A stretch of 64,000 bases of DNA from Bacteroidota bacterium (GTDB lineage Bacteria; Bacteroidota; Bacteroidia; Bacteroidales; JACABE01), in the NCBI GenBank assembly GCA_037133555.1, contig JBAXNW010000002.1, positions 49,637 through 113,636 of the forward strand. The letters are read 5' to 3'. The notes below the pieces were generated by a model. It was not told the DNA's origin, made no database searches, and saw only the letters and a program-made list of their open reading frames with translations. Below, in pieces: positions 3,424 through 42,077 of the stretch; position 1 is the stretch's first letter; every line of letters begins with the position of its first letter. The translations under genes and the position numbers were made by a program.

Positions 3424-4890
3424 TTACAAAATTTCCTTTCTTAACCTGGCCACTCTAATATCCATACCTTCACGATATTTAGCTACCGTACGACGAGCAA
3501 TGTTAAAACCTTTTTTGTTTAATATTTCAGTAAGCTCATCATCATTCAGAGGCGATGTTTTATCTTCATTGTCAATACATTCTTTTAATATACTTTTAAT
3601 TTCGGTAGTTGAAATACCCTCACCAGAATCATTAATCATTGATTTAGAAAAGAAATCTCTAAGCAGAAAAGTACCAAAATGAGTTTCTGCATATTTACTA
3701 TTTGCAACTCTTGAAATGGTTGAAATATCAAGACCTACCACATCCGAAACATCTTTAAGTTTCATAGGTCTGAGTTTTGAAACATTACCATCGAGAAAAT
3801 ATTCATGCTGATAATTCATGATTGCACTCATGGTCACATACAAAGTATTTTGACGTTGTTTGATGGCTTCAATAAACCAACGTGCTGAATCAATTTTTTG
3901 TTTGATGAACATCGCTGCATCTTTTTGTTGTTCAGTTTTTTGATTGCTTACAGCATAACCTTGAAGTAATTCAGCATAGGTCTGATTTACTCTAAGTTCA
4001 GGTGTATTACGATTATTCAGTGAAAGTTCCAACACTCCATTGCTATTGTTAATGATAAAATCAGGAATAACATATTGATTTAATTTTGAAGATCCGCCAA
4101 CAGAATTACCAGGTTTAGGATTTAGTTTTAATATTTCATCAATTGCCGATTTCATTTCTTCCTCTGAAATATTGAATTTCTCAATAATCTTATCAAAATG
4201 TTTTTTAGCAAACCGATCAAACTGAACATTTAAAATTTTATAAGCCAATTGCACAGAAGCAGTTTGTTCATCCTTACGTTGCAATTGCAACAATAAACAT
4301 TCCTGCAAACTTCGGGCTCCAACTCCAGCAGGATCAAGTTCCTGAATAATGTCAAGAACTGCCGTTATTTCAGCTACTGTAATCTCTAAATTTTGAGAAA
4401 AGGCGAAATCATCCACCATGGCTTTGATATCTCTCATTAAATAACCAGAATCATCTAAGTTACCAATAAGGGTTAATCCAATATTATATTGTTTTTCGTC
4501 AAGACCAAGCATCAATAATTGGTCGATTAATGTTTCCTGAAATGAAGCTTCTGAGGCAAAGGGAATTTCTTTTCGTTCTTCATCTGCAGATTTATTGTTA
4601 GCTTTAAGTTTGTAGGAATCTACATCATCTTCATCCAAATAATCGTTAAAATCAAAATCTGTAGTATCGCGTGAATTATCGTCAGAAATTTCATTTTCAT
4701 ATTCATCATTATTATCTGAGCTTTCACCTTCACTGCTATCAGACATATCCTCCAATACAGGATTTTCTTCCAATTCCTGCTTTATTCGCTGTTCAAGTGC
4801 AACGGTAGGCACTTGCAATAACTTCATCAGCAATATCTGCTGAGGCGAAAGTTTTTGCTGTAGTTTTTGCTGTAATCGTTGACTTAACAT
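3424..4890 (-). CDS. rpoN: RNA polymerase sigma-54 factor
   Basis: N-terminal Q/L-rich region I (MLSQRLQQKLQQKLSPQQ), acidic region II and C-terminal RpoN box ARRTVAKYRE. Confidence 0.95.
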   Translation of the reverse strand: MLSQRLQQKLQQKLSPQQILLMKLLQVPTVALEQRIKQELEENPVLEDMSDSSEGESSDNNDEYENEISDDNSRDTTDFDFNDYLDEDDVDSYKLKANNKSADEERKEIPFASEASFQETLIDQLLMLGLDEKQYNIGLTLIGNLDDSGYLMRDIKAMVDDFAFSQNLEITVAEITAVLDIIQELDPAGVGARSLQECLLLQLQRKDEQTASVQLAYKILNVQFDRFAKKHFDKIIEKFNISEEEMKSAIDEILKLNPKPGNSVGGSSKLNQYVIPDFIINNSNGVLELSLNNRNTPELRVNQTYAELLQGYAVSNQKTEQQKDAAMFIKQKIDSARWFIEAIKQRQNTLYVTMSAIMNYQHEYFLDGNVSKLRPMKLKDVSDVVGLDISTISRVANSKYAETHFGTFLLRDFFSKSMINDSGEGISTTEIKSILKECIDNEDKTSPLNDDELTEILNKKGFNIARRTVAKYREGMDIRVARLRKEIL

Positions 4891-12959: not shown

Positions 12960-13619
12960 ATGAAAATTCATAAAGAAGGTTTTAGAATTTTAGCAGTAAC
13001 AATTACATTGTTTATAGCAATACTATTAGCAGAACACATATATTTGAAAGAATATCCCATTATATTCCAACTTTCGATTATTATATTTACTGTAATGTAT
13101 ATTCTTGTAATCAGGTTTTTCAGGGTACCCATTTTCAAAATTGAAACCAATGAAAACCAAATTCTTTGTCCAGCCAACGGTAAGGTCGTTGTAATCGAAG
13201 AAGTAGAAGAAACTGAATATTTTAAAGACAGAAGATTGCAAATATCGGTATTTATGTCGCCCAATGATGTACATGTTAACAGATATTCTATGAGTGGCAT
13301 TGTAAAATACAGCAAATACCATCCTGGTAAGTTTTTAGTAGCCTGGCATCCCAAATCTTCCACCGAAAATGAAAGAACAACTATTGTAGTTGAAAACGAA
13401 AATGGAATAAAAATATTAACACGCCAGATAGCCGGTTTTGTTGCCCGTAGAATCGTTTGCTACTCCAAACAAGGTGATATTGCCAAACAAGGTGAGGAAC
13501 TTGGTTTTATTAAATTCGGTTCAAGGGTTGATTTACTATTACCCTTTGATGTTAAAGTAAATGTAAACATCAATCAAAAAGTGATAGGTGGAAAGACCGT
13601 GATTGCTAGTTTTAAATAA
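12960..13619 (+). CDS. psd: phosphatidylserine decarboxylase proenzyme (short type)
   Basis: N-terminal TM helices and the FGS self-cleavage motif in GFIKFGSRVDLLLP. Confidence 0.9.
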   Translation: MKIHKEGFRILAVTITLFIAILLAEHIYLKEYPIIFQLSIIIFTVMYILVIRFFRVPIFKIETNENQILCPANGKVVVIEEVEETEYFKDRRLQISVFMSPNDVHVNRYSMSGIVKYSKYHPGKFLVAWHPKSSTENERTTIVVENENGIKILTRQIAGFVARRIVCYSKQGDIAKQGEELGFIKFGSRVDLLLPFDVKVNVNINQKVIGGKTVIASFK

Positions 13620-13776: not shown

Positions 13777-15114
13777 TTAAAGAATACCTTGATCTAACAT
13801 TGCATTGGCTACTTTTAAGAAACCTGCAATATTTGCACCTTTTACATAATTTACATATCCGTCAGCTTGTTTTCCGTGTTTTACGCAAGCAGCATGGATA
13901 TTTACCATAATGCTATGTAATTTTTCGTCAACTTCCTGAGCAGACCAATTGTATTTTAATGAATTCTGTGACATTTCTAAACCTGAAGTAGCAACACCAC
14001 CTGCGTTAACTGCTTTTCCAGGTCCGAATAACACTTTATTTTCCAAGAAAACTTCAACAGCTTCAGGAGTTGAAGGCATATTAGCACCTTCAGCAACGCA
14101 GATACAACCGTTTTTAACAAGAATTAAAGCATCTTCTTTGCTTACTTCGTTTTGAGTAGCACAAGGTAAAGCTACATCACATTTAACTTCCCATGGACGT
14201 TTTCCTTGGTGGAATTGTGCGTTAGGAAATTCATAAGAATATGGCTTAACGATATCTTGGTTAGAAGCTCTTAATTCAAGTAAATAATCAATTTTAGCTC
14301 CTGAAATACCATCTGGATCATAAATATAACCATCAGGTCCAGAAATAGTAACAACTTTACCACCTAATTCAGTAACCTTAATGGCTGCACCCCAGCATAC
14401 ATTACCAAAACCTGATAAACATACTGTTTTGCCTTTGAATGATTCACCTTTTGTGGCTAACATTTCTTTTGCAAAATATACTGCACCAAAACCAGTAGCT
14501 TCTGGACGAACCAAACTTCCACCCCAATTGATACCTTTACCTGTAAGAACACCAACGTGTTCCTTGGTTAATTTTTTATACATACCAAACATGAAACCGA
14601 TTTCACGTCCACCAACACCGATATCACCAGCAGGAACATCCGTTTCTGGTCCTATCATTCTCCATAATTCTAACATGAATGATTGGCAAAAACGCATTAC
14701 TTCATTGTTTGATTTTCCTTTAGGATCAAAATTTGAACCACCTTTTCCACCACCCATAGGCAAAGTAGTCAAACTATTTTTAAAAATTTGTTCGAAACCT
14801 AAAAATTTCAAAATACTTAAGTTAACACTAGGGTGAAAACGCAAACCACCTTTGTAAGGTCCTATTGCATTGTTGAACTGTACTCTGTAACCTAAGTTAA
14901 CCTGTACTTTACCATTATCATCAACCCAAGGCACTTTAAATGCTAAAAGTCTGTCTGGTTCAACCAATCTGTCGATAATACCAGCTGCTTCGAATTGTGG
15001 ATTTTCGTTGACCACTTCTTCTAATGATTCTAAAACTTCGCGAACTGCTTGTAGATATTCTACTTCACCTGGGTGTTTTTTCTCCAGGTCGTTCATTATT
15101 TTCTCTAAGTTCAT
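13777..15114 (-). CDS. glutamate dehydrogenase, paralogue 1 (dinucleotide fingerprint GFGNVCWG / SGPDG)
   Basis: Hexameric GDH signature [10 protein letters not shown] with the catalytic Lys region. 445 aa. Roughly two-thirds identical by eye to the second copy. Confidence 0.95.
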   Translation of the reverse strand: MNLEKIMNDLEKKHPGEVEYLQAVREVLESLEEVVNENPQFEAAGIIDRLVEPDRLLAFKVPWVDDNGKVQVNLGYRVQFNNAIGPYKGGLRFHPSVNLSILKFLGFEQIFKNSLTTLPMGGGKGGSNFDPKGKSNNEVMRFCQSFMLELWRMIGPETDVPAGDIGVGGREIGFMFGMYKKLTKEHVGVLTGKGINWGGSLVRPEATGFGAVYFAKEMLATKGESFKGKTVCLSGFGNVCWGAAIKVTELGGKVVTISGPDGYIYDPDGISGAKIDYLLELRASNQDIVKPYSYEFPNAQFHQGKRPWEVKCDVALPCATQNEVSKEDALILVKNGCICVAEGANMPSTPEAVEVFLENKVLFGPGKAVNAGGVATSGLEMSQNSLKYNWSAQEVDEKLHSIMVNIHAACVKHGKQADGYVNYVKGANIAGFLKVANAMLDQGIL

Positions 15115-15191
15115 TTTTAAATGTTTAATTGTTTAAATGTTTATATACAAAAACTTGTTTAAGAAATAACAGTGTTAATTAAATAACAATG

Positions 15192-15199
15192 CAAAATTA
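15192..15199 (-). promoter_or_regulatory. candidate -7 box TAATTTTG for GDH-1
   Basis: CAAAATTA on the plus strand is TAATTTTG on the minus strand. It lies 78 nt upstream of ATG 15114. Confidence 0.4.
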
Positions 15200-15261
15200 C
15201 ATTTAATTAATTGACTAAAAAAAAAATTACCCAATTATTTTTCAAAATTATGAAAAATAAT

Positions 15262-15278
15262 TTAAGTGAAACACTTAA
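15262..15278. promoter_or_regulatory. palindromic operator-like site TTAAGTG-AAA-CACTTAA
   Basis: Perfect 7+3+7 inverted repeat, about 63-79 nt upstream of the candidate GDH-1 -7 box. Same core as the two palindromes at 22356-22407. Confidence 0.55.
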
Positions 15279-15299
15279 TTTTAAAAAAAATTAGTTGAA

Positions 15300-18287
15300 T
15301 TATTCATTTGAGTCAGAAAATGATTGTTTTAGAACAATCCCTTTATTTTTCTTTCCATCAATTTTAATGATGAGTGGATTTGAAAATCTCAAATGACGGA
15401 TAAATTCATCTTCATAATAGGGTTCAATACTTGATAAATAATCAATATCGTAAAATCCATCATTGATAAATGGATTAATCGTAAAATATCCGACCCTGAA
15501 AGAAGTAAGATTTTGAAAAAAGTGTGTTCCCTGGCTAGGATCTATTCTGTAATTTTTAAGTCCGGATTCAACAATAAGTCTAGCTGCAGAAATTTGCGGC
15601 CATTTTACAGGTATTCCTAGCCAAGGGTCACTGGAACCCCATCGACCAGGTCCAACCAAAATATATTGTTTTTCTTCTTTCAGGAACAGATCGTTCAACT
15701 TTCCAATATCTTTGACAATTGCTTCACTTTTGGATGGATCAAATGACTCGGGCTTTACATATACAATATCGTAAACGTCCTCAATAATCCCATTTCCTAA
15801 TGCAGAATTGCAAATAATCAAAGCCTTTTCTTTATCAATCTCGCTTAAATCTTCTTTTAAGGTTTGATCATTGTCAACAATTGGACGAATTTGCAATAAA
15901 TTAAATATTTTAGGTTGATTATCCGGCACATCCAAATCAACGGCAAATTCAATTTCAACAGGTTTATTCATTTCCCGTTGTGCTACTTCTAGTATATCTT
16001 TTAAAATTTTAGCAAGAGGAAATGAATTATGATTTAATATGTTAGAAAAAGTTATTAGTTTTTTCCCATCATGGTATATCCCATCTCTTAACATATTGCT
16101 TTCAAAATCAAAAGTTGAAGCAATCATTTTAATTGAATTATCCTTTTCTGCCTCATTTATTGAAAGTTTCAATATATTAACACCATCATCAACGCAGGGT
16201 TTAAAACTTTCTTTGTTCATATCCAAAGCATAAAAGTGTCTTTGAGTTTCTCTCAAAGCCATATCAACTGATGATAATTGAAGTATTTTTTGAGGATATT
16301 GGGGCGAAAACCTTAATGTATTTCCTCCGTCAACAATATATTTACCTAAACCTAAAGCTATGTTTACAATTCCATCTTCAGGTTTTTCGGGTGCAATGGG
16401 GTAAAAATTAATAGAACGAGCCACACCTGAAATAGTTGGATAAAATCGATTTCCATAAAGTTGTCCACAAACTTCTTGCAAAACAATACCCATTTTCTCT
16501 TCATCAATTACATTCTTTGTTGCTGTCATATAAGCTTTACTATCCTTAAAATACACAGATGCATACACGCTTTTTATTGCAATGCTTAATTTCTCAATCA
16601 TTGTACGCTCATCATGTAAATTAGGTATCATATACGTAGAATAAATTCCTGCAAACGGCTGATAATGTGAATCTTCTAACAGACTTGATGAACGTATCGC
16701 TATAGGTTTTTTGACAACTGAAATAAATGCATATAAGTCTTCGTGAATACGGAAAGGCAAACGAGCACTGACAAAACTTTGAAGAATATCATCGTTACTT
16801 TTTTCGGATAAAGCAATTTTAAATAAATTATTGTCTTCCATAAACTCATCAAAAACATCTGTACCTAATACTACGGTTCTGGGAATGGTTACAATTACAT
16901 CATCATATTTATCCACCATTCTGTTTCGTTTTACCAGGGTATCTATAAAAGCCAAGCCACGAGCTTTTCCACCAATAGAACCACTTCCTATACGAGTAAA
17001 AATAAGATATTCATCAAATTTATCACGATAAAAATCAGCAATTACTCCCCTACCCTTATTACTTCGGTATCGAGCTATTGCATCAAAAATATAACGTCTT
17101 ATTTCGTCTAAATCATTAAAATCTTCAAATCTTAGAATCTTAAGCATTTCTGCAATTGAAAAAAAGGCCCTGGCATTTAACCATTTAGAAAAATGATTAT
17201 TGCTTAAATGATAATAAAACGAATCATCAGGAATATCAAAAATTTTATCTTGTAGATTTTTCAAGTCACTCACTCTTAAAACTTCAACTTTTGTTTCAGG
17301 GTTTTTAAAAACGAAATCACCGAATGAAAAATTATTTAAAATAAAATCTTTTAATTCATGTGAATAAGTTTTTGAATTTTTATCTAAAAACCCGACCTTA
17401 AGCTCTTTAGCTTTAAAGCTATTTTCAGAATCAGATGATTGGAGCAAAAAAGGCAAATCTTTGTCATCATTTCTTACTAATTCACAAAAACGGATTCCAG
17501 CGTTTTTGTTCATTACACCATAGGTTTTAAAACTTATATCTGAAATAACACCTAACAAATTGTTTTTGTATTTTTCGTAGAAATCGATGGCTTGTTCATA
17601 ATTGGTTGCTAATAAAATCTTAGGCCGCCCACGCATACGTAACATTTTTTGATGTTCGTTCAGCCCTTCAGTCATAAATTTTAGCGATTGTTTAAAAATC
17701 AATTTATATAAATTAGGCAAATAACTTGAATACAACCTTACAGAATCTTCAACCAATAATAAACATTGAACGCCAACTTCATGTGAATCAAATTCAACAT
17801 TCATATCATCTTCTATCAGCTTTATTATAGCCAACATAATATCAGCATTGCCCAACCAGCTAAAAACGTAATCAATAGATGTTGTATCACCAGAATCTAA
17901 TTTAAGTGAAACTTCTCGTGAAAAAGGTGTGAGAACAACAATAGGTTTATATGGATATTTTATTTTTATTTGTTTTGCGAAATCAAAAACATCCACATCA
18001 CCTAAATCTAACATAGTAATTATCAAATCAATCTGATCTTCAATTAATACTTTAAATGCTTGTTCTGCTGAAGAGACCTGAATAAAATGCGGTGGATACC
18101 TTAAGTTTAAAGATACATATTCATTAAAAATTTGTTCCTCAATTCTTCCATCTCCTTCTAAAACAAATGCATCATATTTGCTACATATTAACAATACTTT
18201 GTTGATGCGTTTAGTCATTAAATTGTCAAAAGGAGTCTCTGTAAAATAAAACTTTTTGATATCCTTTACTTTCTTTTCTTTCTGCAT
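15300..18287 (-). CDS. degenerate receiver + receiver + PEP/pyruvate-binding (PPDK_N-type ATP-grasp) domain protein with conserved C-terminal domain
   Basis: REC2 has LLVEDS, acceptor D250 (LLGVISD), QSS and K303. REC1 has Met92 at the acceptor position. The ATP-grasp region has GSGSIGGKARGLAFI and AIRSSSLLEDS..QPFAGI. The C-terminus has GPGRWGSSDPWLGIPVKW and GTHFF. Confidence 0.8.
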   Translation of the reverse strand: MQKEKKVKDIKKFYFTETPFDNLMTKRINKVLLICSKYDAFVLEGDGRIEEQIFNEYVSLNLRYPPHFIQVSSAEQAFKVLIEDQIDLIITMLDLGDVDVFDFAKQIKIKYPYKPIVVLTPFSREVSLKLDSGDTTSIDYVFSWLGNADIMLAIIKLIEDDMNVEFDSHEVGVQCLLLVEDSVRLYSSYLPNLYKLIFKQSLKFMTEGLNEHQKMLRMRGRPKILLATNYEQAIDFYEKYKNNLLGVISDISFKTYGVMNKNAGIRFCELVRNDDKDLPFLLQSSDSENSFKAKELKVGFLDKNSKTYSHELKDFILNNFSFGDFVFKNPETKVEVLRVSDLKNLQDKIFDIPDDSFYYHLSNNHFSKWLNARAFFSIAEMLKILRFEDFNDLDEIRRYIFDAIARYRSNKGRGVIADFYRDKFDEYLIFTRIGSGSIGGKARGLAFIDTLVKRNRMVDKYDDVIVTIPRTVVLGTDVFDEFMEDNNLFKIALSEKSNDDILQSFVSARLPFRIHEDLYAFISVVKKPIAIRSSSLLEDSHYQPFAGIYSTYMIPNLHDERTMIEKLSIAIKSVYASVYFKDSKAYMTATKNVIDEEKMGIVLQEVCGQLYGNRFYPTISGVARSINFYPIAPEKPEDGIVNIALGLGKYIVDGGNTLRFSPQYPQKILQLSSVDMALRETQRHFYALDMNKESFKPCVDDGVNILKLSINEAEKDNSIKMIASTFDFESNMLRDGIYHDGKKLITFSNILNHNSFPLAKILKDILEVAQREMNKPVEIEFAVDLDVPDNQPKIFNLLQIRPIVDNDQTLKEDLSEIDKEKALIICNSALGNGIIEDVYDIVYVKPESFDPSKSEAIVKDIGKLNDLFLKEEKQYILVGPGRWGSSDPWLGIPVKWPQISAARLIVESGLKNYRIDPSQGTHFFQNLTSFRVGYFTINPFINDGFYDIDYLSSIEPYYEDEFIRHLRFSNPLIIKIDGKKNKGIVLKQSFSDSNE

Positions 18288-18292
18288 TATTG

Positions 18293-18395
18293 GTTATTAG
18301 GCTATTGGTAATTTAGTTATTAGGTTATTGAGTTATTAGGTTATTGAGTTATTGAGTTATTGAGTTATTGAGTTATTGAGTTATTAGGTTATTGA
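18293..18395. repeat. 13-unit tandem octamer repeat GTTATTGA/GTTATTAG (TCAATAAC on the coding strand)
   Basis: Read directly. The three promoter-distal units are degenerate and one unit has 7 nt. Five consecutive perfect GTTATTGA units span 18340-18379. The array ends 5 nt from start codon 18287. Confidence 0.95.
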
Positions 18396-18461
18396 GAATA
18401 AAATAATTAAAAAAATTAGGAATATGTAAATATCACAATTTAAAATTTCAAAATTCAAAGT

Positions 18462-21400
18462 TTACTGATCACTGATTTTAGTAGTTATAACAGCCATACG
18501 TTTTTTGCCATCCATTTTCACATCAAGCGGTTCTTTAAATCTTATATGTCTAAAAAAAATGGTCTGATTAATTATCTTCTCATTTTTTAATTTATCCCAG
18601 TTGATATAACTTTCATTCAATTCCTGTTGTACCGAAAAATAGCCAACATTCAATGAAGTAACATTATGAAAGAAATGCGAACCTGAAGAAGCATCCAACG
18701 GAAAATCCTCCAAACTGGTTTCTACAATAACTTTAGCATTGGAAATCTGGGTCCAGTTTACCGGAATTCCAATCCATTTATCCCGGGTCCCCCATCGTCC
18801 GGGGCCAATTAAAATATATTTCCTGTTTTCTTTAATCATTAATAAATTAAGCTTTTCAATTTCTAAAGCCATTTCATCGGTTTTTGATTTATCGAAAATA
18901 CTAATATCTACATAAATTACATCGGTAATGTCATTTATCAGTCCATTTCCCATTCCTTTATCAGAAAACAAAATTACATCGTTTTTGTTAATTTTCGATT
19001 CATCAATAGAATAATCTTCTGCATTTCCTATTAATGGTTTGATTTGCAGAAGATAAAAAGATGCTCTACCCTTTTCATCTTTTTTTAAATCGATTGCAAA
19101 TTCAATTTCAACGGGAGATCCCAAAGCTTCTTTCACTACATCCAATACCAATTCAATTGTTTCTGAAAGCGGTATATAATTATATTTCAATATATTTGCA
19201 AAATTAATAATCCTAGGACCCGGAAAACTCAAACCGGGTACAATTCTATTATTATCAATATCGTAAACAGAAGCACAATGTCTTAAAGTTCCATGTTTTT
19301 CAGCAACATCAATATCTAATTTAATTAAACCAGCCTCCTCACCTTCCAATAAATTTAGAGGATGCTGTTTTAAATCAATGGCATAAAAATTAACTTGCGA
19401 ACCCTTGTATTGATCTTTTGGTGAATTAATTTCAATGCCTGCATATTTAGGAGCAAAACGATAAGCTTTTTCTCCTTCAACAACATAAGTTCCCAAACCA
19501 ACTGCAATTACAGCAAAACCTTCTTCGGGTTTCATATGCGAAAAAGGATAAAAGTTATAGGATTGTGCAACACCACTAAGATGAGGATAATACACTTCAT
19601 CGTATATGTTTCCAACAACTTCTTGTATAACAATAGCCATTTTTTCTTCTTCAATTTTATAATTAATCGCTTCAACATACCCACGTGCAATTTTTGAAAA
19701 AACAGAAGCGTAAACTAATTTAATAGCTTCTACTACCTGAAGCAGTCGTTCTTCCAAGTCAGGATGATTATTAGGAATTAAATAGGTTTCAAAAATTCCA
19801 GCAAAAGGTTGCATCATAGAATCTTCAAACAAACCTGATGAGCGAATTGCCAATGGTTTAACAAGTTTTTTCAATAACAGCCTTAGCTTTCTCAGCAAGC
19901 TATCAGTTAATTTTGATTCAAGAAAGGTTTTACGAATTATTGTATAATCTCTTTCTGAATTTACAAAATCATATAATTTATTTCTTTCAATGAAATAATC
20001 AAATTCATCGGTGCCAATTATGGATGTAATCGGAGTTCTAATATTAATATCAGGAAGCATTTGCGAAAAATCATAATTATAAATTAAAGTATTAATAAAT
20101 GCCAAACCCCTACCCTTTCCTCCCAAAGAGCCGGAAGCCATTGAGACAATATTACTTTCATCAATAACATCTGTTTCTTCAAAACTAATTACTTTCCCTT
20201 TATTTTTCTCATTCCGATGGTTTTGAATTGCATTTAGCAAGTAATTTCTTAATTCCCCTGCATTTTTAAAATCAGTAGTCTTTAATGGGTTAATCCTTTT
20301 CGCGATAGAAATTTCGCCCCTTGCCATCAACCACAATGAAAAATGATTACGCTTTCCATGATAAATTAATGATTCGTCAGGTATTGTTTTTAAATGTTTT
20401 TCAAATTCTTTCAGTGAACTTGCAATTGCAATATCTCTACCCGATGCATCTTTATAAATAAAGTTTCCAAAACCCAAATAATGACTGATGAAACTTTTAA
20501 TATCCTGAGATAAAGTATCTGAATTCTTGTCAATAAAAGTTACTTTTAGTTCGTATGCCAATTTTGCATTTTCCGGATCAGATGATTGAATAATAGTAGG
20601 CAAATCTTTGGCATTGCTTCTAATATATTTTACTAAATCATAGCCTGCATTTTCGTCCAACAAATTGTTTCTGAAGAACTTCATATCCGTAATTAAACAC
20701 AATAAATAATCCCGGTATTTATGAAAAATATCAATGGCTTCTTCATATGATTTTACCAAAAGAATTTTAGGTCTTGCTCTTAATCTTAAAACCTTGTACA
20801 ACTCATCATTGCTCACATCTTCAATTAATTGCTTGGTTTGTTCTAACACACTAGAATATAACATTGGCAGATAACGAGAATAATATTTTGCAGAATCCTC
20901 CACTAATAAAATTACATTTACCAAACCTATTTTTGTATCATTTTCTACATTTACCTTATCCTCAAGATATTTTACCATTGCAAAGAAAACGCGTGAATCT
21001 CCATTCCACACAAATATTTTATCGACAAGTTTAACAACTTCAATGTCTTTTTCGTAAAGAGCTATATCGCTATTATTGTTTAACAACATAAAAATAGGAA
21101 TATAGGGAAAATTGCATTTAATACTTTTACTTATCTCAATAGGTACATTTTTATCAACACCTAGCATTATGATTACGAAATCATAATGCTTTTCATTTAA
21201 CTCAGATAATGCTTCCTCATAAGACGAAACGCCTGTAACCCTGGGTATTGAAGTAAGATTTAGCTGATAATATTCGCCCAAAATATGTTCCGAAAACCTA
21301 CCTTCTTTCTCAATGTTATAAGCATCATATAGATTTGCAATTAAAAGGATTTCATTTACTTTGAATGGCATTAAATCGTGAAAAATATCTCTGTCGTAGT

Positions 21401-22286
21401 TTTGTTTGTTTAAGAATTTATGTAATAATTGTCGGCTCGGAATTTTTTGATTATCATCAATGGTTTCAACATACTCTTTCTCGGAATTTTTTAAAATAGA
21501 TTTTGCTTTTAAACTATTCAGATAATTAACAATTATTGTAGAAAGATTATCAATTAAATGTCGTTCCTCTTTTAAGAAAGGGCCTTCGTCAATGTCATTA
21601 AAACTCTTTAAATAAAATACTTCGATAGATCCTTTCAGTTGATCAATGGTCTCGAAATTTTGCTTTTGCATCCAAGGTGTTTCAACAAAATCAGGTGTTT
21701 TAAACTCATTTTTATTAAAAACAACTCTTGCTACTGTAAATTCTGGATATTGCCATGCTTTAGGCAACAACATACATATTTGTTGCAAGGTTTCTTCAAT
21801 GGATTTTCCTTCTTTTAGAATTTTTGTTGTCTGATTAATTGCAGCTAATTCTTTTAAACGTTCTTTATTCTCAAAGATTAATTTCTCAAGTTTATCTCCT
21901 GTTGATGTTTCTGGAATGGCAGCAGCTTGGTGATAGTTCTTTTCCTCAGTTATCTTCCTTTTATCGCTGAATGCATTAAAGTCAAAGCTTATTCGTTTAA
22001 GTTTATAAAGTGCAGCACCCTCTTTTTCAAGAACAGGAGTAAATACTCCGTTAATAAATAAATCGTTACTGTCTTTTTTAACAAAATGCATTTCAACTTG
22101 CTGCACGCTTCCATTGCGCAATTGCTCCCACATTAATCTGAATTTATCAGATTTATAGACTGAGTTTTCAAGTAAAAAACTTAAATGATTCCCCTTTATT
22201 TCATTTAAACTATAGCCAAGTAAATTACATAGGTCAGCATTCACTTTTTCGATGATGCCATCAAGATTAAATTCGATTAATGCCAT
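18462..22286 (-). CDS. PAS + GAF-like + degenerate receiver + receiver + PPDK_N-type ATP-grasp domain protein (paralogue of 15300-18287)
   Basis: N-terminal PAS core (FNLDGIIEKVNADLCNLLGYSLNEIKGNH). GAF-like block (LPKAWQYPEFTVARVVF...GPFLKEERHLI). Pseudo-REC with Met374, and REC with LLVEDS and D534. GSLGGKGRGLAFI, AIRSSGLFEDS..QPFAGI, GPGRWGTRDKWIGIPVNW and GSHFF. Confidence 0.8.
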   Translation of the reverse strand: MALIEFNLDGIIEKVNADLCNLLGYSLNEIKGNHLSFLLENSVYKSDKFRLMWEQLRNGSVQQVEMHFVKKDSNDLFINGVFTPVLEKEGAALYKLKRISFDFNAFSDKRKITEEKNYHQAAAIPETSTGDKLEKLIFENKERLKELAAINQTTKILKEGKSIEETLQQICMLLPKAWQYPEFTVARVVFNKNEFKTPDFVETPWMQKQNFETIDQLKGSIEVFYLKSFNDIDEGPFLKEERHLIDNLSTIIVNYLNSLKAKSILKNSEKEYVETIDDNQKIPSRQLLHKFLNKQNYDRDIFHDLMPFKVNEILLIANLYDAYNIEKEGRFSEHILGEYYQLNLTSIPRVTGVSSYEEALSELNEKHYDFVIIMLGVDKNVPIEISKSIKCNFPYIPIFMLLNNNSDIALYEKDIEVVKLVDKIFVWNGDSRVFFAMVKYLEDKVNVENDTKIGLVNVILLVEDSAKYYSRYLPMLYSSVLEQTKQLIEDVSNDELYKVLRLRARPKILLVKSYEEAIDIFHKYRDYLLCLITDMKFFRNNLLDENAGYDLVKYIRSNAKDLPTIIQSSDPENAKLAYELKVTFIDKNSDTLSQDIKSFISHYLGFGNFIYKDASGRDIAIASSLKEFEKHLKTIPDESLIYHGKRNHFSLWLMARGEISIAKRINPLKTTDFKNAGELRNYLLNAIQNHRNEKNKGKVISFEETDVIDESNIVSMASGSLGGKGRGLAFINTLIYNYDFSQMLPDINIRTPITSIIGTDEFDYFIERNKLYDFVNSERDYTIIRKTFLESKLTDSLLRKLRLLLKKLVKPLAIRSSGLFEDSMMQPFAGIFETYLIPNNHPDLEERLLQVVEAIKLVYASVFSKIARGYVEAINYKIEEEKMAIVIQEVVGNIYDEVYYPHLSGVAQSYNFYPFSHMKPEEGFAVIAVGLGTYVVEGEKAYRFAPKYAGIEINSPKDQYKGSQVNFYAIDLKQHPLNLLEGEEAGLIKLDIDVAEKHGTLRHCASVYDIDNNRIVPGLSFPGPRIINFANILKYNYIPLSETIELVLDVVKEALGSPVEIEFAIDLKKDEKGRASFYLLQIKPLIGNAEDYSIDESKINKNDVILFSDKGMGNGLINDITDVIYVDISIFDKSKTDEMALEIEKLNLLMIKENRKYILIGPGRWGTRDKWIGIPVNWTQISNAKVIVETSLEDFPLDASSGSHFFHNVTSLNVGYFSVQQELNESYINWDKLKNEKIINQTIFFRHIRFKEPLDVKMDGKKRMAVITTKISDQ

Positions 22287-22353
22287 AATGAGTATTTTGG
22301 TTTAAAATTAAAACAAAACCAGCTTAATTATTGAGTTTTTTTATATTATATTT

Positions 22354-22361
22354 CAAAATTA
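22354..22361 (-). promoter_or_regulatory. candidate -7 box TAATTTTG for the 1274-aa gene
   Basis: CAAAATTA on the plus strand, 68 nt upstream of ATG 22286. Overlaps the left arm of the 23-bp palindrome. Confidence 0.4.
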
Positions 22362-22378
22362 AGTAAATTACTTAATTT
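22356..22378. promoter_or_regulatory. perfect 23-bp palindrome AAATTAAGTAA-A-TTACTTAATTT (core TTAAGTA-N3-TACTTAA)
   Basis: Base-by-base check gives 11+1+11 perfect dyad symmetry, in the divergent region between the 1274-aa gene and GDH-2. Confidence 0.6.
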
Positions 22379-22407: not shown

Positions 22408-22429
22408 TAAATTTACGATAAACACGTAA

Positions 22430-23875
<1,446 letters not shown>

Positions 23876-41899: not shown

Positions 41900-42077
41900 T
41901 TACACGCAAAGATAAAATTTTATTTCAGAATTTCTAAACGATAAAAACACTTTTTTATTTTCAGCTATCACTTATTTCTTATTTCAAATTTACGTTTATA
42001 GCGTAATTGCTTGATAGAGGATTAAAGATTGAGAATGAGAATCGATAGATTGTTCTTAAATTACTGACATTTTATCA

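Follow-up and report, generated by a model that had tools for sequence, protein, structure and literature searches.

The window (the whole stretch of 64,000 nt that was analysed) is AT-rich, with 31% G+C. Its closest relatives were uncultured Bacteroidales MAGs, and the metagenome runs that contained window sequence came from freshwater and lake water. Two glutamate dehydrogenase genes lie on either side of two large receiver/ATP-grasp genes:

13777-15114, minus strand: gdh-1, glutamate dehydrogenase of the PRK14030 subfamily (Pfam ELFV_dehydrog)
15300-18287, minus strand: P995 (the 995-aa gene), receiver domain(s), DUF5752 and PPDK_N (ATP-grasp)
18462-22286, minus strand: P1274, N-terminal PAS, receiver, DUF5752 and PPDK_N (ATP-grasp)
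22529-23875, plus strand: gdh-2, glutamate dehydrogenase of NADP-specific type (PRK09414)

The gdh-1 product scored 826 bits against NCBIfam NF010633 (cut-off 743) and was 64% identical to that of gdh-2, both being full-length ELFV dehydrogenases. P995 and P1274 are paralogues with 40% identity. P995 is separated from gdh-1 by 185 nt (15115-15299), and the four-gene cluster (gdh-1, P995, P1274, gdh-2) was kept in close relatives. A large protein with receiver, DUF5752 and PPDK_N domains was also found next to gdh at loci from Bacteroidota, Ignavibacteria and Candidatus Eisenbacteria and in an Eggerthellaceae bin (gdh-adjacent receiver/PPDK_N loci L006-L009, L014, L016, L019, L033, L035, L036, L039-L042, L045, L050-L052, L067, L070 and L218-L265). 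A literature search on the pairing of REC-PPDK_N proteins with gdh returned nothing specific. Trans-acting genes downstream of gdhA in B. thetaiotaomicron were reportedly described by Baggio and Morrison in 1996, to go by the title of their paper. Metatranscriptome contigs were few and of low depth, and fell only inside the coding parts of gdh-1, gdh-2 and P1274.

The gap between P1274 and P995 measured 174 nt in the window and 13-76 nt in relatives. It was filled with about 13 tandem 8-mers (CTCAATAA / CCTAATAA, minus strand; window 18292-18396), over which metagenome contigs displayed a depth spike and indels of 1-2 nt. Another 8-mer repeat (GCAATTAG, three copies) directly followed P995 in L085.

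Four short dyads were located in the two spacers in front of the gdh genes:

15262-15278 (site D): perfect 7+3+7 dyad TTAAGTG-AAA-CACTTAA (TTAAGTGAAACACTTAA), 22 nt past the P995 stop and upstream of gdh-1
22359-22375 (site A): perfect dyad TTAAGTAAATTACTTAA, the dyad closest to P1274
22390-22406 (site B): perfect dyad TTAAGTATTATACTTAA, 31 bp from site A (centre to centre)
22413-22429 (site C): degenerate dyad TTACGATAAACACGTAA with a half-site of the TTACGT type, 23 bp from site B, PWM score 14.6

The pattern TTAAGTRNNNYACTTAA (TTAAGTR-N3-YACTTAA) matched the window exactly three times, at 15262, 22359 and 22390. No match arose in 100 shuffles of the window that preserved dinucleotides; analytically, 0.009 matches would be expected in the window and 0.0001 in the two spacers at their own composition (44% A, 42% T). 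Allowing up to two mismatches yielded no additional convincing copy in the window. A match at 41990 (TTACGTTTATAGCGTAA, score 13.2) was not conserved in L083 and was dismissed as chance. The 17-bp dyads are real and non-random. Their consensus was nTAMGT-R-WWW-Y-ACKTAn, with T2, A3, G5 / C13, T15 and A16 invariant. An architecture of 6-7 + 3-5 + 6-7 has the dyad symmetry expected of a palindromic operator (12-20 bp, kept arms, free spacer).

An earlier note on this DNA had described the perfect dyad at 15262-15278 in the 185-nt gap, and both its position and the length of the gap proved correct. The same note counted three copies in the window. This agrees with the exact matches, but the fourth, degenerate copy at 22413-22429 had been overlooked. 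As to whether the motif is simply part of the genomic background, which the note had raised, three perfect copies stand against an expectation of 0.009, and about 221 kb of other DNA from the genomes compared held no strong dyad.

P995 homologues of 82-92% identity led to close relatives, whose contigs were then retrieved. Eight or nine genomes of related freshwater Bacteroidales had dyads at orthologous positions. Site A was kept in 8 of 8 aligned relatives, sites A and B occurred in every close-relative genome, and site C was likewise kept in all of them, with the block AAATTACGT invariant in eight genomes. The orthologue of site D, which lay about 20 nt past the P995 stop in the relatives, was perfect in L081 and L089, carried one mismatch in L084, L087 and L091, was decayed in L083 and was absent in L085. 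In alignments of 7-8 genomes, column identity was 0.90-0.95 in the arms, 0.5-0.7 in the dyad spacer and 0.74 in the rest of the intergenic spacers. The earlier note had proposed phylogenetic footprinting as a check, and the outcome was orthologous dyads with kept arms and free spacers. Dyad positions 7 and 11 stayed R and Y and were often non-complementary (A..C, G..T), which fits protein readout of DNA and not RNA pairing.

In 225 kb of sequence (the window and seven close relatives), all 11 exact copies fell within the two spacers, which together make up 3.5 kb. Only one PWM match scoring at least 14 was found in the remaining ~221 kb. Such confinement to promoter regions, together with over-representation there, is as expected of operators. 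Additional dyads were seen in two relatives: in L084 about 220 bp of extra DNA between P995 and gdh-1 (12983-13383) held a second dyad (ATAAGTGTTTCACTTAG) besides the orthologous one, and in L089 a second dyad lay 30 bp upstream, overlapping the P995 stop.

For more distant genomes, a strict-motif scan of 80 gdh loci of GTDB species (GDH-1 identity at most 85%) gave no dyad upstream of gdh-1 orthologues. The case against the motif that these loci appeared to make was overturned by the closer relatives. A wider set was then assembled by a search with the P1274 N-terminus, which gave 48 loci, and gdh-2 and P1274 were divergent neighbours in 43 GTDB species. Across these 43 species the core TAMGT-N5-ACKTA occurred 17 times in 11.9 kb of gdh-2/P1274 spacers, as against a single occurrence in 194.6 kb of flanking DNA. 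The variant ATAMGT-N5-ACKTAT was carried in the same divergent promoter by a second, less closely related clade (gdh-2 78-84% identical), as three or four dyads at 22-23 bp spacing. This clade (L227, L242, L248, L260) comprised Prolixibacteraceae-like MAGs, one of them labelled Draconibacterium orientale, and one complete chromosome (OY759717.1). Similar sites were present 100-150 nt upstream of gdh-2 in L058, L070 and L073.

In Marinifilum, Labilibaculum, Ancylomarina and several Lentimicrobium-like genomes the divergent gene pair was kept and the dyads were absent from its promoter. Motif-less spacers of the first three genera (L229, L245, L253, L255, L263) shared other blocks, for example AGAATTCGTTCAAGGTCAAGCTGTTAGAATTCGTTTAAATT, which suggests a different regulator there. 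Since the gene pair persists without the motif and with other conserved blocks, operator content appears to have turned over. The exact string TTAAGTA-N3-TACTTAA was found at background level in unrelated genomes of many phyla (at least 120 matches), and one close relative, L203, was among the matches listed; the motif would therefore be meaningful only in this lineage and in its promoter context. Also among the matches listed, the string lay inside multi-copy repeats of unrelated genomes (L109, L121, L137, L160, L168; L102, L144, L165, L183), occurred as two or three copies in Clostridia MAGs, usually 167-178 nt apart, and in one Muribaculaceae MAG was carried by four contigs, on three of them close to the ends.

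Promoters were assigned by the Bacteroidota sigma-A consensus TAnnTTTG, which occupies -12 to -5 (PMC9723704; consensus also in PMC7366714). Distances from dyad to start were taken from the start implied by each -7 box, with TAnnTTTG placed at -12 to -5 (PMC9723704). Four boxes were identified as putative promoter elements:

15192-15199, minus strand: proximal gdh-1 -7 box TAATTTTG, fits TAnnTTTG; invariant in seven relatives and kept in the distant loci L001-L003
15243-15250, minus strand: distal -7-type box TAATTTTG, then AAAAATAATTG, 11 nt downstream of site D; kept in 7 of 7 aligned relatives (mean column identity 0.94)
22303-22310, minus strand: P1274 -7 box TAATTTTA, invariant in eight relatives (identity 1.00); TAATTTTA or TATTTTTG in the second clade
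22477-22484, plus strand: gdh-2 -7 box TAACATTG, TAAYATTG in relatives; identity 0.97 in the window clade, TAATATTG in the second clade

From their sequence and conservation these boxes, the distal gdh-1 box included, are probably used as promoters. The distal box was missing from the more distant gdh-1 loci L001-L003. It is surrounded in the window by an inverted repeat (ATTATTTTTCA / TGAAAAATAAT, 15233-15262), which folds as a second hairpin beside site D and was not conserved in relatives. No promoter of the -24/-12 type was apparent by eye in the gdh spacers; a gene for sigma-54 (rpoN) is present in the window (3424-4890, minus strand).

A further element was noticed directly downstream of the proximal gdh-1 box, where the invariant block CATTGTTATTTAATTAACACTGTTATTT (TGTTA-N6-TAACA-N-TGTTA; 15164-15191, minus strand) had a mean identity of 0.96 in seven relatives and was recognisable in the distant L001-L003. 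The gdh-2 box TAACATTG contains the word TAACAtTG, which is also found in this leader block. The block is a candidate for a second, older control element or for a leader common to gdh genes.

The distances between dyads and boxes were strongly constrained. Among the 18 motif-bearing genomes measured, from both clades, every one had the dyad nearest P1274 centred 67-69 bp upstream of the P1274 start, and this distance was unchanged in the second clade, where the distance from the gdh-2 box to the P1274 box is 11 bp longer. The centre of site B lies at about -100 from the P1274 box. Measured from the gdh-2 box, dyad centres were at about -68 (site C), about -91 (site B) and -122 in the window clade, and at -67 or -90, -112 and -135 in the second clade. 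A fixed position relative to the core promoter across species is a further property expected of operators. At gdh-1, site D was centred -31 to -33 from the distal box (six genomes), the tighter of the two spacings, as compared with -81 to -85 for the proximal one. The earlier note had placed this dyad 63-79 nt upstream of the box at 15192-15199 and had called the position activator-like. The distance was confirmed for the proximal box; the second box had escaped notice, and relative to it site D takes a repressor-like position.

Outside the narrow clade, gdh-1 orthologues had neither site D nor the distal box, so gdh-1 would have joined the set of dyads recently. Judged by this distribution, site D is a younger, dispensable addition, and the divergent promoter of P1274 and gdh-2 is where the array is anchored. 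On this point the picture drawn in the note needs correcting, the gdh-1 copy being only recent (absent in distant genomes and in L085, decayed in L083).

In kind, the dyad is an ordinary operator and a biologically meaningful cis-regulatory motif. The 17-bp palindrome is very likely the binding site of a dimeric regulator; both the binding of a protein and its dimeric state are inferred. The preferred explanation, with a probability of about 0.6, is that the four dyads are operators for one symmetric dimeric (or higher) regulator that is encoded outside the window and is likely positive at P1274 and gdh-2. The proposal of the earlier note that both GDH genes share one dimeric regulator is thus kept in its core, which is supported by the orthologous dyads, their free spacers and the fixed promoter distances, with binding itself a matter of inference.

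In the preferred explanation, sites A, B and C (spacing 31 and 23 bp) would fill the room between the divergent P1274-P995 and gdh-2 core promoters, and the starts of P1274 and gdh-2 would each have a dyad upstream, centred at about -69 and about -68, respectively. The regulator would most likely activate both divergent promoters in a class-I-like, position-dependent manner. A spacing of ~68 bp strictly kept at both divergent promoters, with their -7 boxes left free of dyads, is the hallmark of such activation. Site D would have been added more recently before gdh-1. It covers about -40 to -24 of the clade-specific distal promoter, where a bound protein would be expected to block RNA polymerase; relative to the ancient proximal promoter the position of the site is about -83, and it might act from there. 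The sign of regulation is thus predicted from geometry alone. With site D repressor-like and sites A-C activator-like, the same regulator could treat the two GDH isoenzymes differently. In Bacteroides fragilis, two GDHs are reciprocally controlled by organic nitrogen (PMC4539542), and opposite handling of the NADP-type and the second GDH would match that response.

The main competitor keeps the same operators and makes the regulator a pure repressor, whose dimers would bind the three sites of the divergent region cooperatively and occlude secondary TAATTTTG promoters at site A (22354-22361) and after site D (15243-15250), in the way of multi-operator GntR, TetR or MarR repressors. This is a serious rival, albeit an unlikely one. 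The position of site D, centred -31 to -33 of a kept -7-type box and held more tightly to it than to the proximal box, is what a repressor would require, and a TAATTTTG box overlaps an arm of site A in five of eight relatives, although it was not kept in L084, L087 and L089. The generic signature of GntR operators, NyGT-Nx-ACNy, accommodates the invariant GT...AC core, and the flavobacterial AusR represses with one to three operators at or near the -7 box (PMC7641319). However, no dyad overlaps the deeply conserved -7 box of P1274 or that of gdh-2, and a distance held strictly at -67 to -69 in both clades is more usual for position-dependent activation. Local repressors are usually encoded next to their targets, yet no repressor gene adjoins the cluster.

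Another reading takes site D for an intrinsic terminator hairpin or an RNA processing signal where the P995 transcript ends, in which case its resemblance to the other palindromes would be secondary. The site lies 22 nt past the P995 stop and can fold into a hairpin (7-bp stem, 3-nt loop) that precedes AUUAUUUUU, but the stem has only two G-C pairs and a terminator scan of 15050-15350 found nothing. A real terminator in the window, after plsY, has a G+C-containing stem of 9-10 bp and a T run. Three more dyads (sites A-C) lie in a divergent promoter where no gene ends, and in relatives the arms are kept in sequence, with positions 7 and 11 often unable to pair. The G+C-rich stem and U run of a Rho-independent terminator at a gene 3' end were not found, and this reading, which was given very little weight, was rejected.

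Least credible of all is that the dyads are remnants or ends of repeats or mobile elements, recombination sites (such as the repeats of Bacteroidales invertible promoters) or chance occurrences in AT-rich DNA: TTAAGTA-N3-TACTTAA is at background in many phyla and, among the matches listed, sits in multi-copy repeats in some Clostridia and Muribaculaceae MAGs, but against this stand three copies where 0.009 were expected, orthologous positions and fixed promoter distances in 18 genomes, no significant similarity between the regions around sites A and D beyond the dyad, metagenome contigs (which drop rare variants) in which neither joints nor inversions marked the dyads, and no recombinase gene among the window ORFs scanned. 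Repeat element and chance were both rejected, the latter on the statistical evidence. The region of site D was likewise rejected as a duplicate of that of site A, the similarity not being significant once the dyads were masked. An invertible promoter of the Bacteroidales type was set aside, since the individual sites are palindromes in themselves and no more than 14 bp separates site A from site B.

The gene for the regulator was sought in and around the cluster. Among the window ORFs no recognisable transcription factor or HTH gene was found except rpoN, and a few small ORFs had no family match; this agrees with the earlier statement that the regulator is not encoded in the window. P995 and P1274 contained no DNA-binding domain, and neither the called genes near the cluster in L081-L091 nor the window ORFs contained a GntR or other HTH domain. 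A winged-helix ORF of 57-59 aa (NCBI label MarR family) was observed downstream of gdh-1 in three relatives (L081, 14634-14807; L083, 16176-16355; L084, 15559-15738). It belongs to a small family of about 21 clusters, which includes Alkaliflexus imshenetskii and is not gdh-linked elsewhere. As a candidate regulator the 59-aa form was unsupported, being absent from the window, found in unrelated contexts elsewhere and preceded by no dyad. Literature searches on the motif and on gdh regulators in Bacteroides returned nothing specific, nor did they bring up a published regulator motif for genes of nitrogen assimilation in Bacteroidota/Bacteroidales.

What the locus provides is a defined, conserved 17-bp motif at fixed distances from promoters. 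It precedes both GDH isoenzymes and the two unusual receiver/ATP-grasp proteins, which are kept as partners of gdh in several phyla. With this motif the regulator could be isolated, its regulon delimited and reciprocal control of the two GDHs put to the test. The variant of the motif occurs in a MAG labelled Draconibacterium orientale, which is a named species, so that experiments may be possible. A more speculative proposal, advanced tentatively and with more doubt than belief, is that this is a new Bacteroidales circuit in which one activator at about -68 co-controls the pair of receiver/PPDK_N enzymes and the NADP-type GDH, one lineage having captured the second GDH with opposite sign. If true, a new nitrogen/carbon-status system in Bacteroidota would be made up of the regulator together with the REC-PPDK_N proteins, whose link to GDH is widely conserved. 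The motif is of value mainly because it opens a way into nitrogen regulation in Bacteroidales and towards the conserved GDH-linked receiver/ATP-grasp proteins.

The dyads were compared with known systems. Sites of class I activators (CRP) and of LysR-type regulators lie about -60 to -70 upstream of the start. The dyads resemble them in their fixed position ~65-70 bp upstream, in the weaker sites alongside and in serving divergent promoters, whereas the sigma-A promoter architecture of Bacteroidota differs from the sigma-70 architecture of class I and LysR-type promoters. A CRP/FNR-type site (TTGAT-N4-ATCAA or TGTGA-N6-TCACA) was rejected, the dyad being an odd-length 17-mer of form 6-N5-6 whose half-sites differ from those of CRP/FNR, with G and C 8 bp apart. 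A LysR-type site (T-N11-A near -65 with a divergent LTTR gene) was rejected as well; the distance of about -68 is compatible, but the divergent genes are gdh-2 and P1274, neither of which encodes an LTTR.

Known boxes of nitrogen regulators at gdh are TGTNA-N7-TNACA for TnrA/GlnR, CTAT-N6-ATAG for AmtR and GTA-N8-TAC for NtcA, regulators that belong to Firmicutes, Actinobacteria and Cyanobacteria. Like the dyads, these are palindromes of 14-17 bp before gdh, and also before further genes of nitrogen assimilation, and they allow position-dependent dual control; the dyad sequence does not match them. The TnrA/GlnR box in particular does not fit the dyad, and the separate element in the gdh-1 leader, TGTTA-N6-TAACA, is one base short of TGTNA-N7-TNACA.

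AusR, of the GntR/FadR family, is the repressor of the alginate utilisation system of Zobellia galactanivorans and controls its regulon through single, double and triple operators near the -7 box (PMC7641319). In the GntR signature NyGT-Nx-ACNy, G5-T6 ... A12-C13 of the dyad fit with x = 5, which is not the FadR (2-3) or HutC pattern, and the signature is too weak to be diagnostic (PMC7641319). A cognate GntR gene in or next to the regulated locus, as expected for a GntR-family operator, was not found among the window ORFs and the called genes near the cluster in L081-L091. The AusR motif is TKGT-N2-3-ACMA and the ausR gene lies inside the regulated locus (PMC7641319), whereas here the GT...AC spacer is 5 bp and no GntR gene is nearby; the main sites here are at about -68 and those of AusR on the -7 box, and the present dyads are known from sequence alone. 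Like the operators of AusR, they are short GT...AC dyads from Bacteroidota, present in one to three copies in several promoters at or near a TAnnTTTG -7 box, and the AusR operators, too, were first found by motif search and comparative genomics (PMC7641319).
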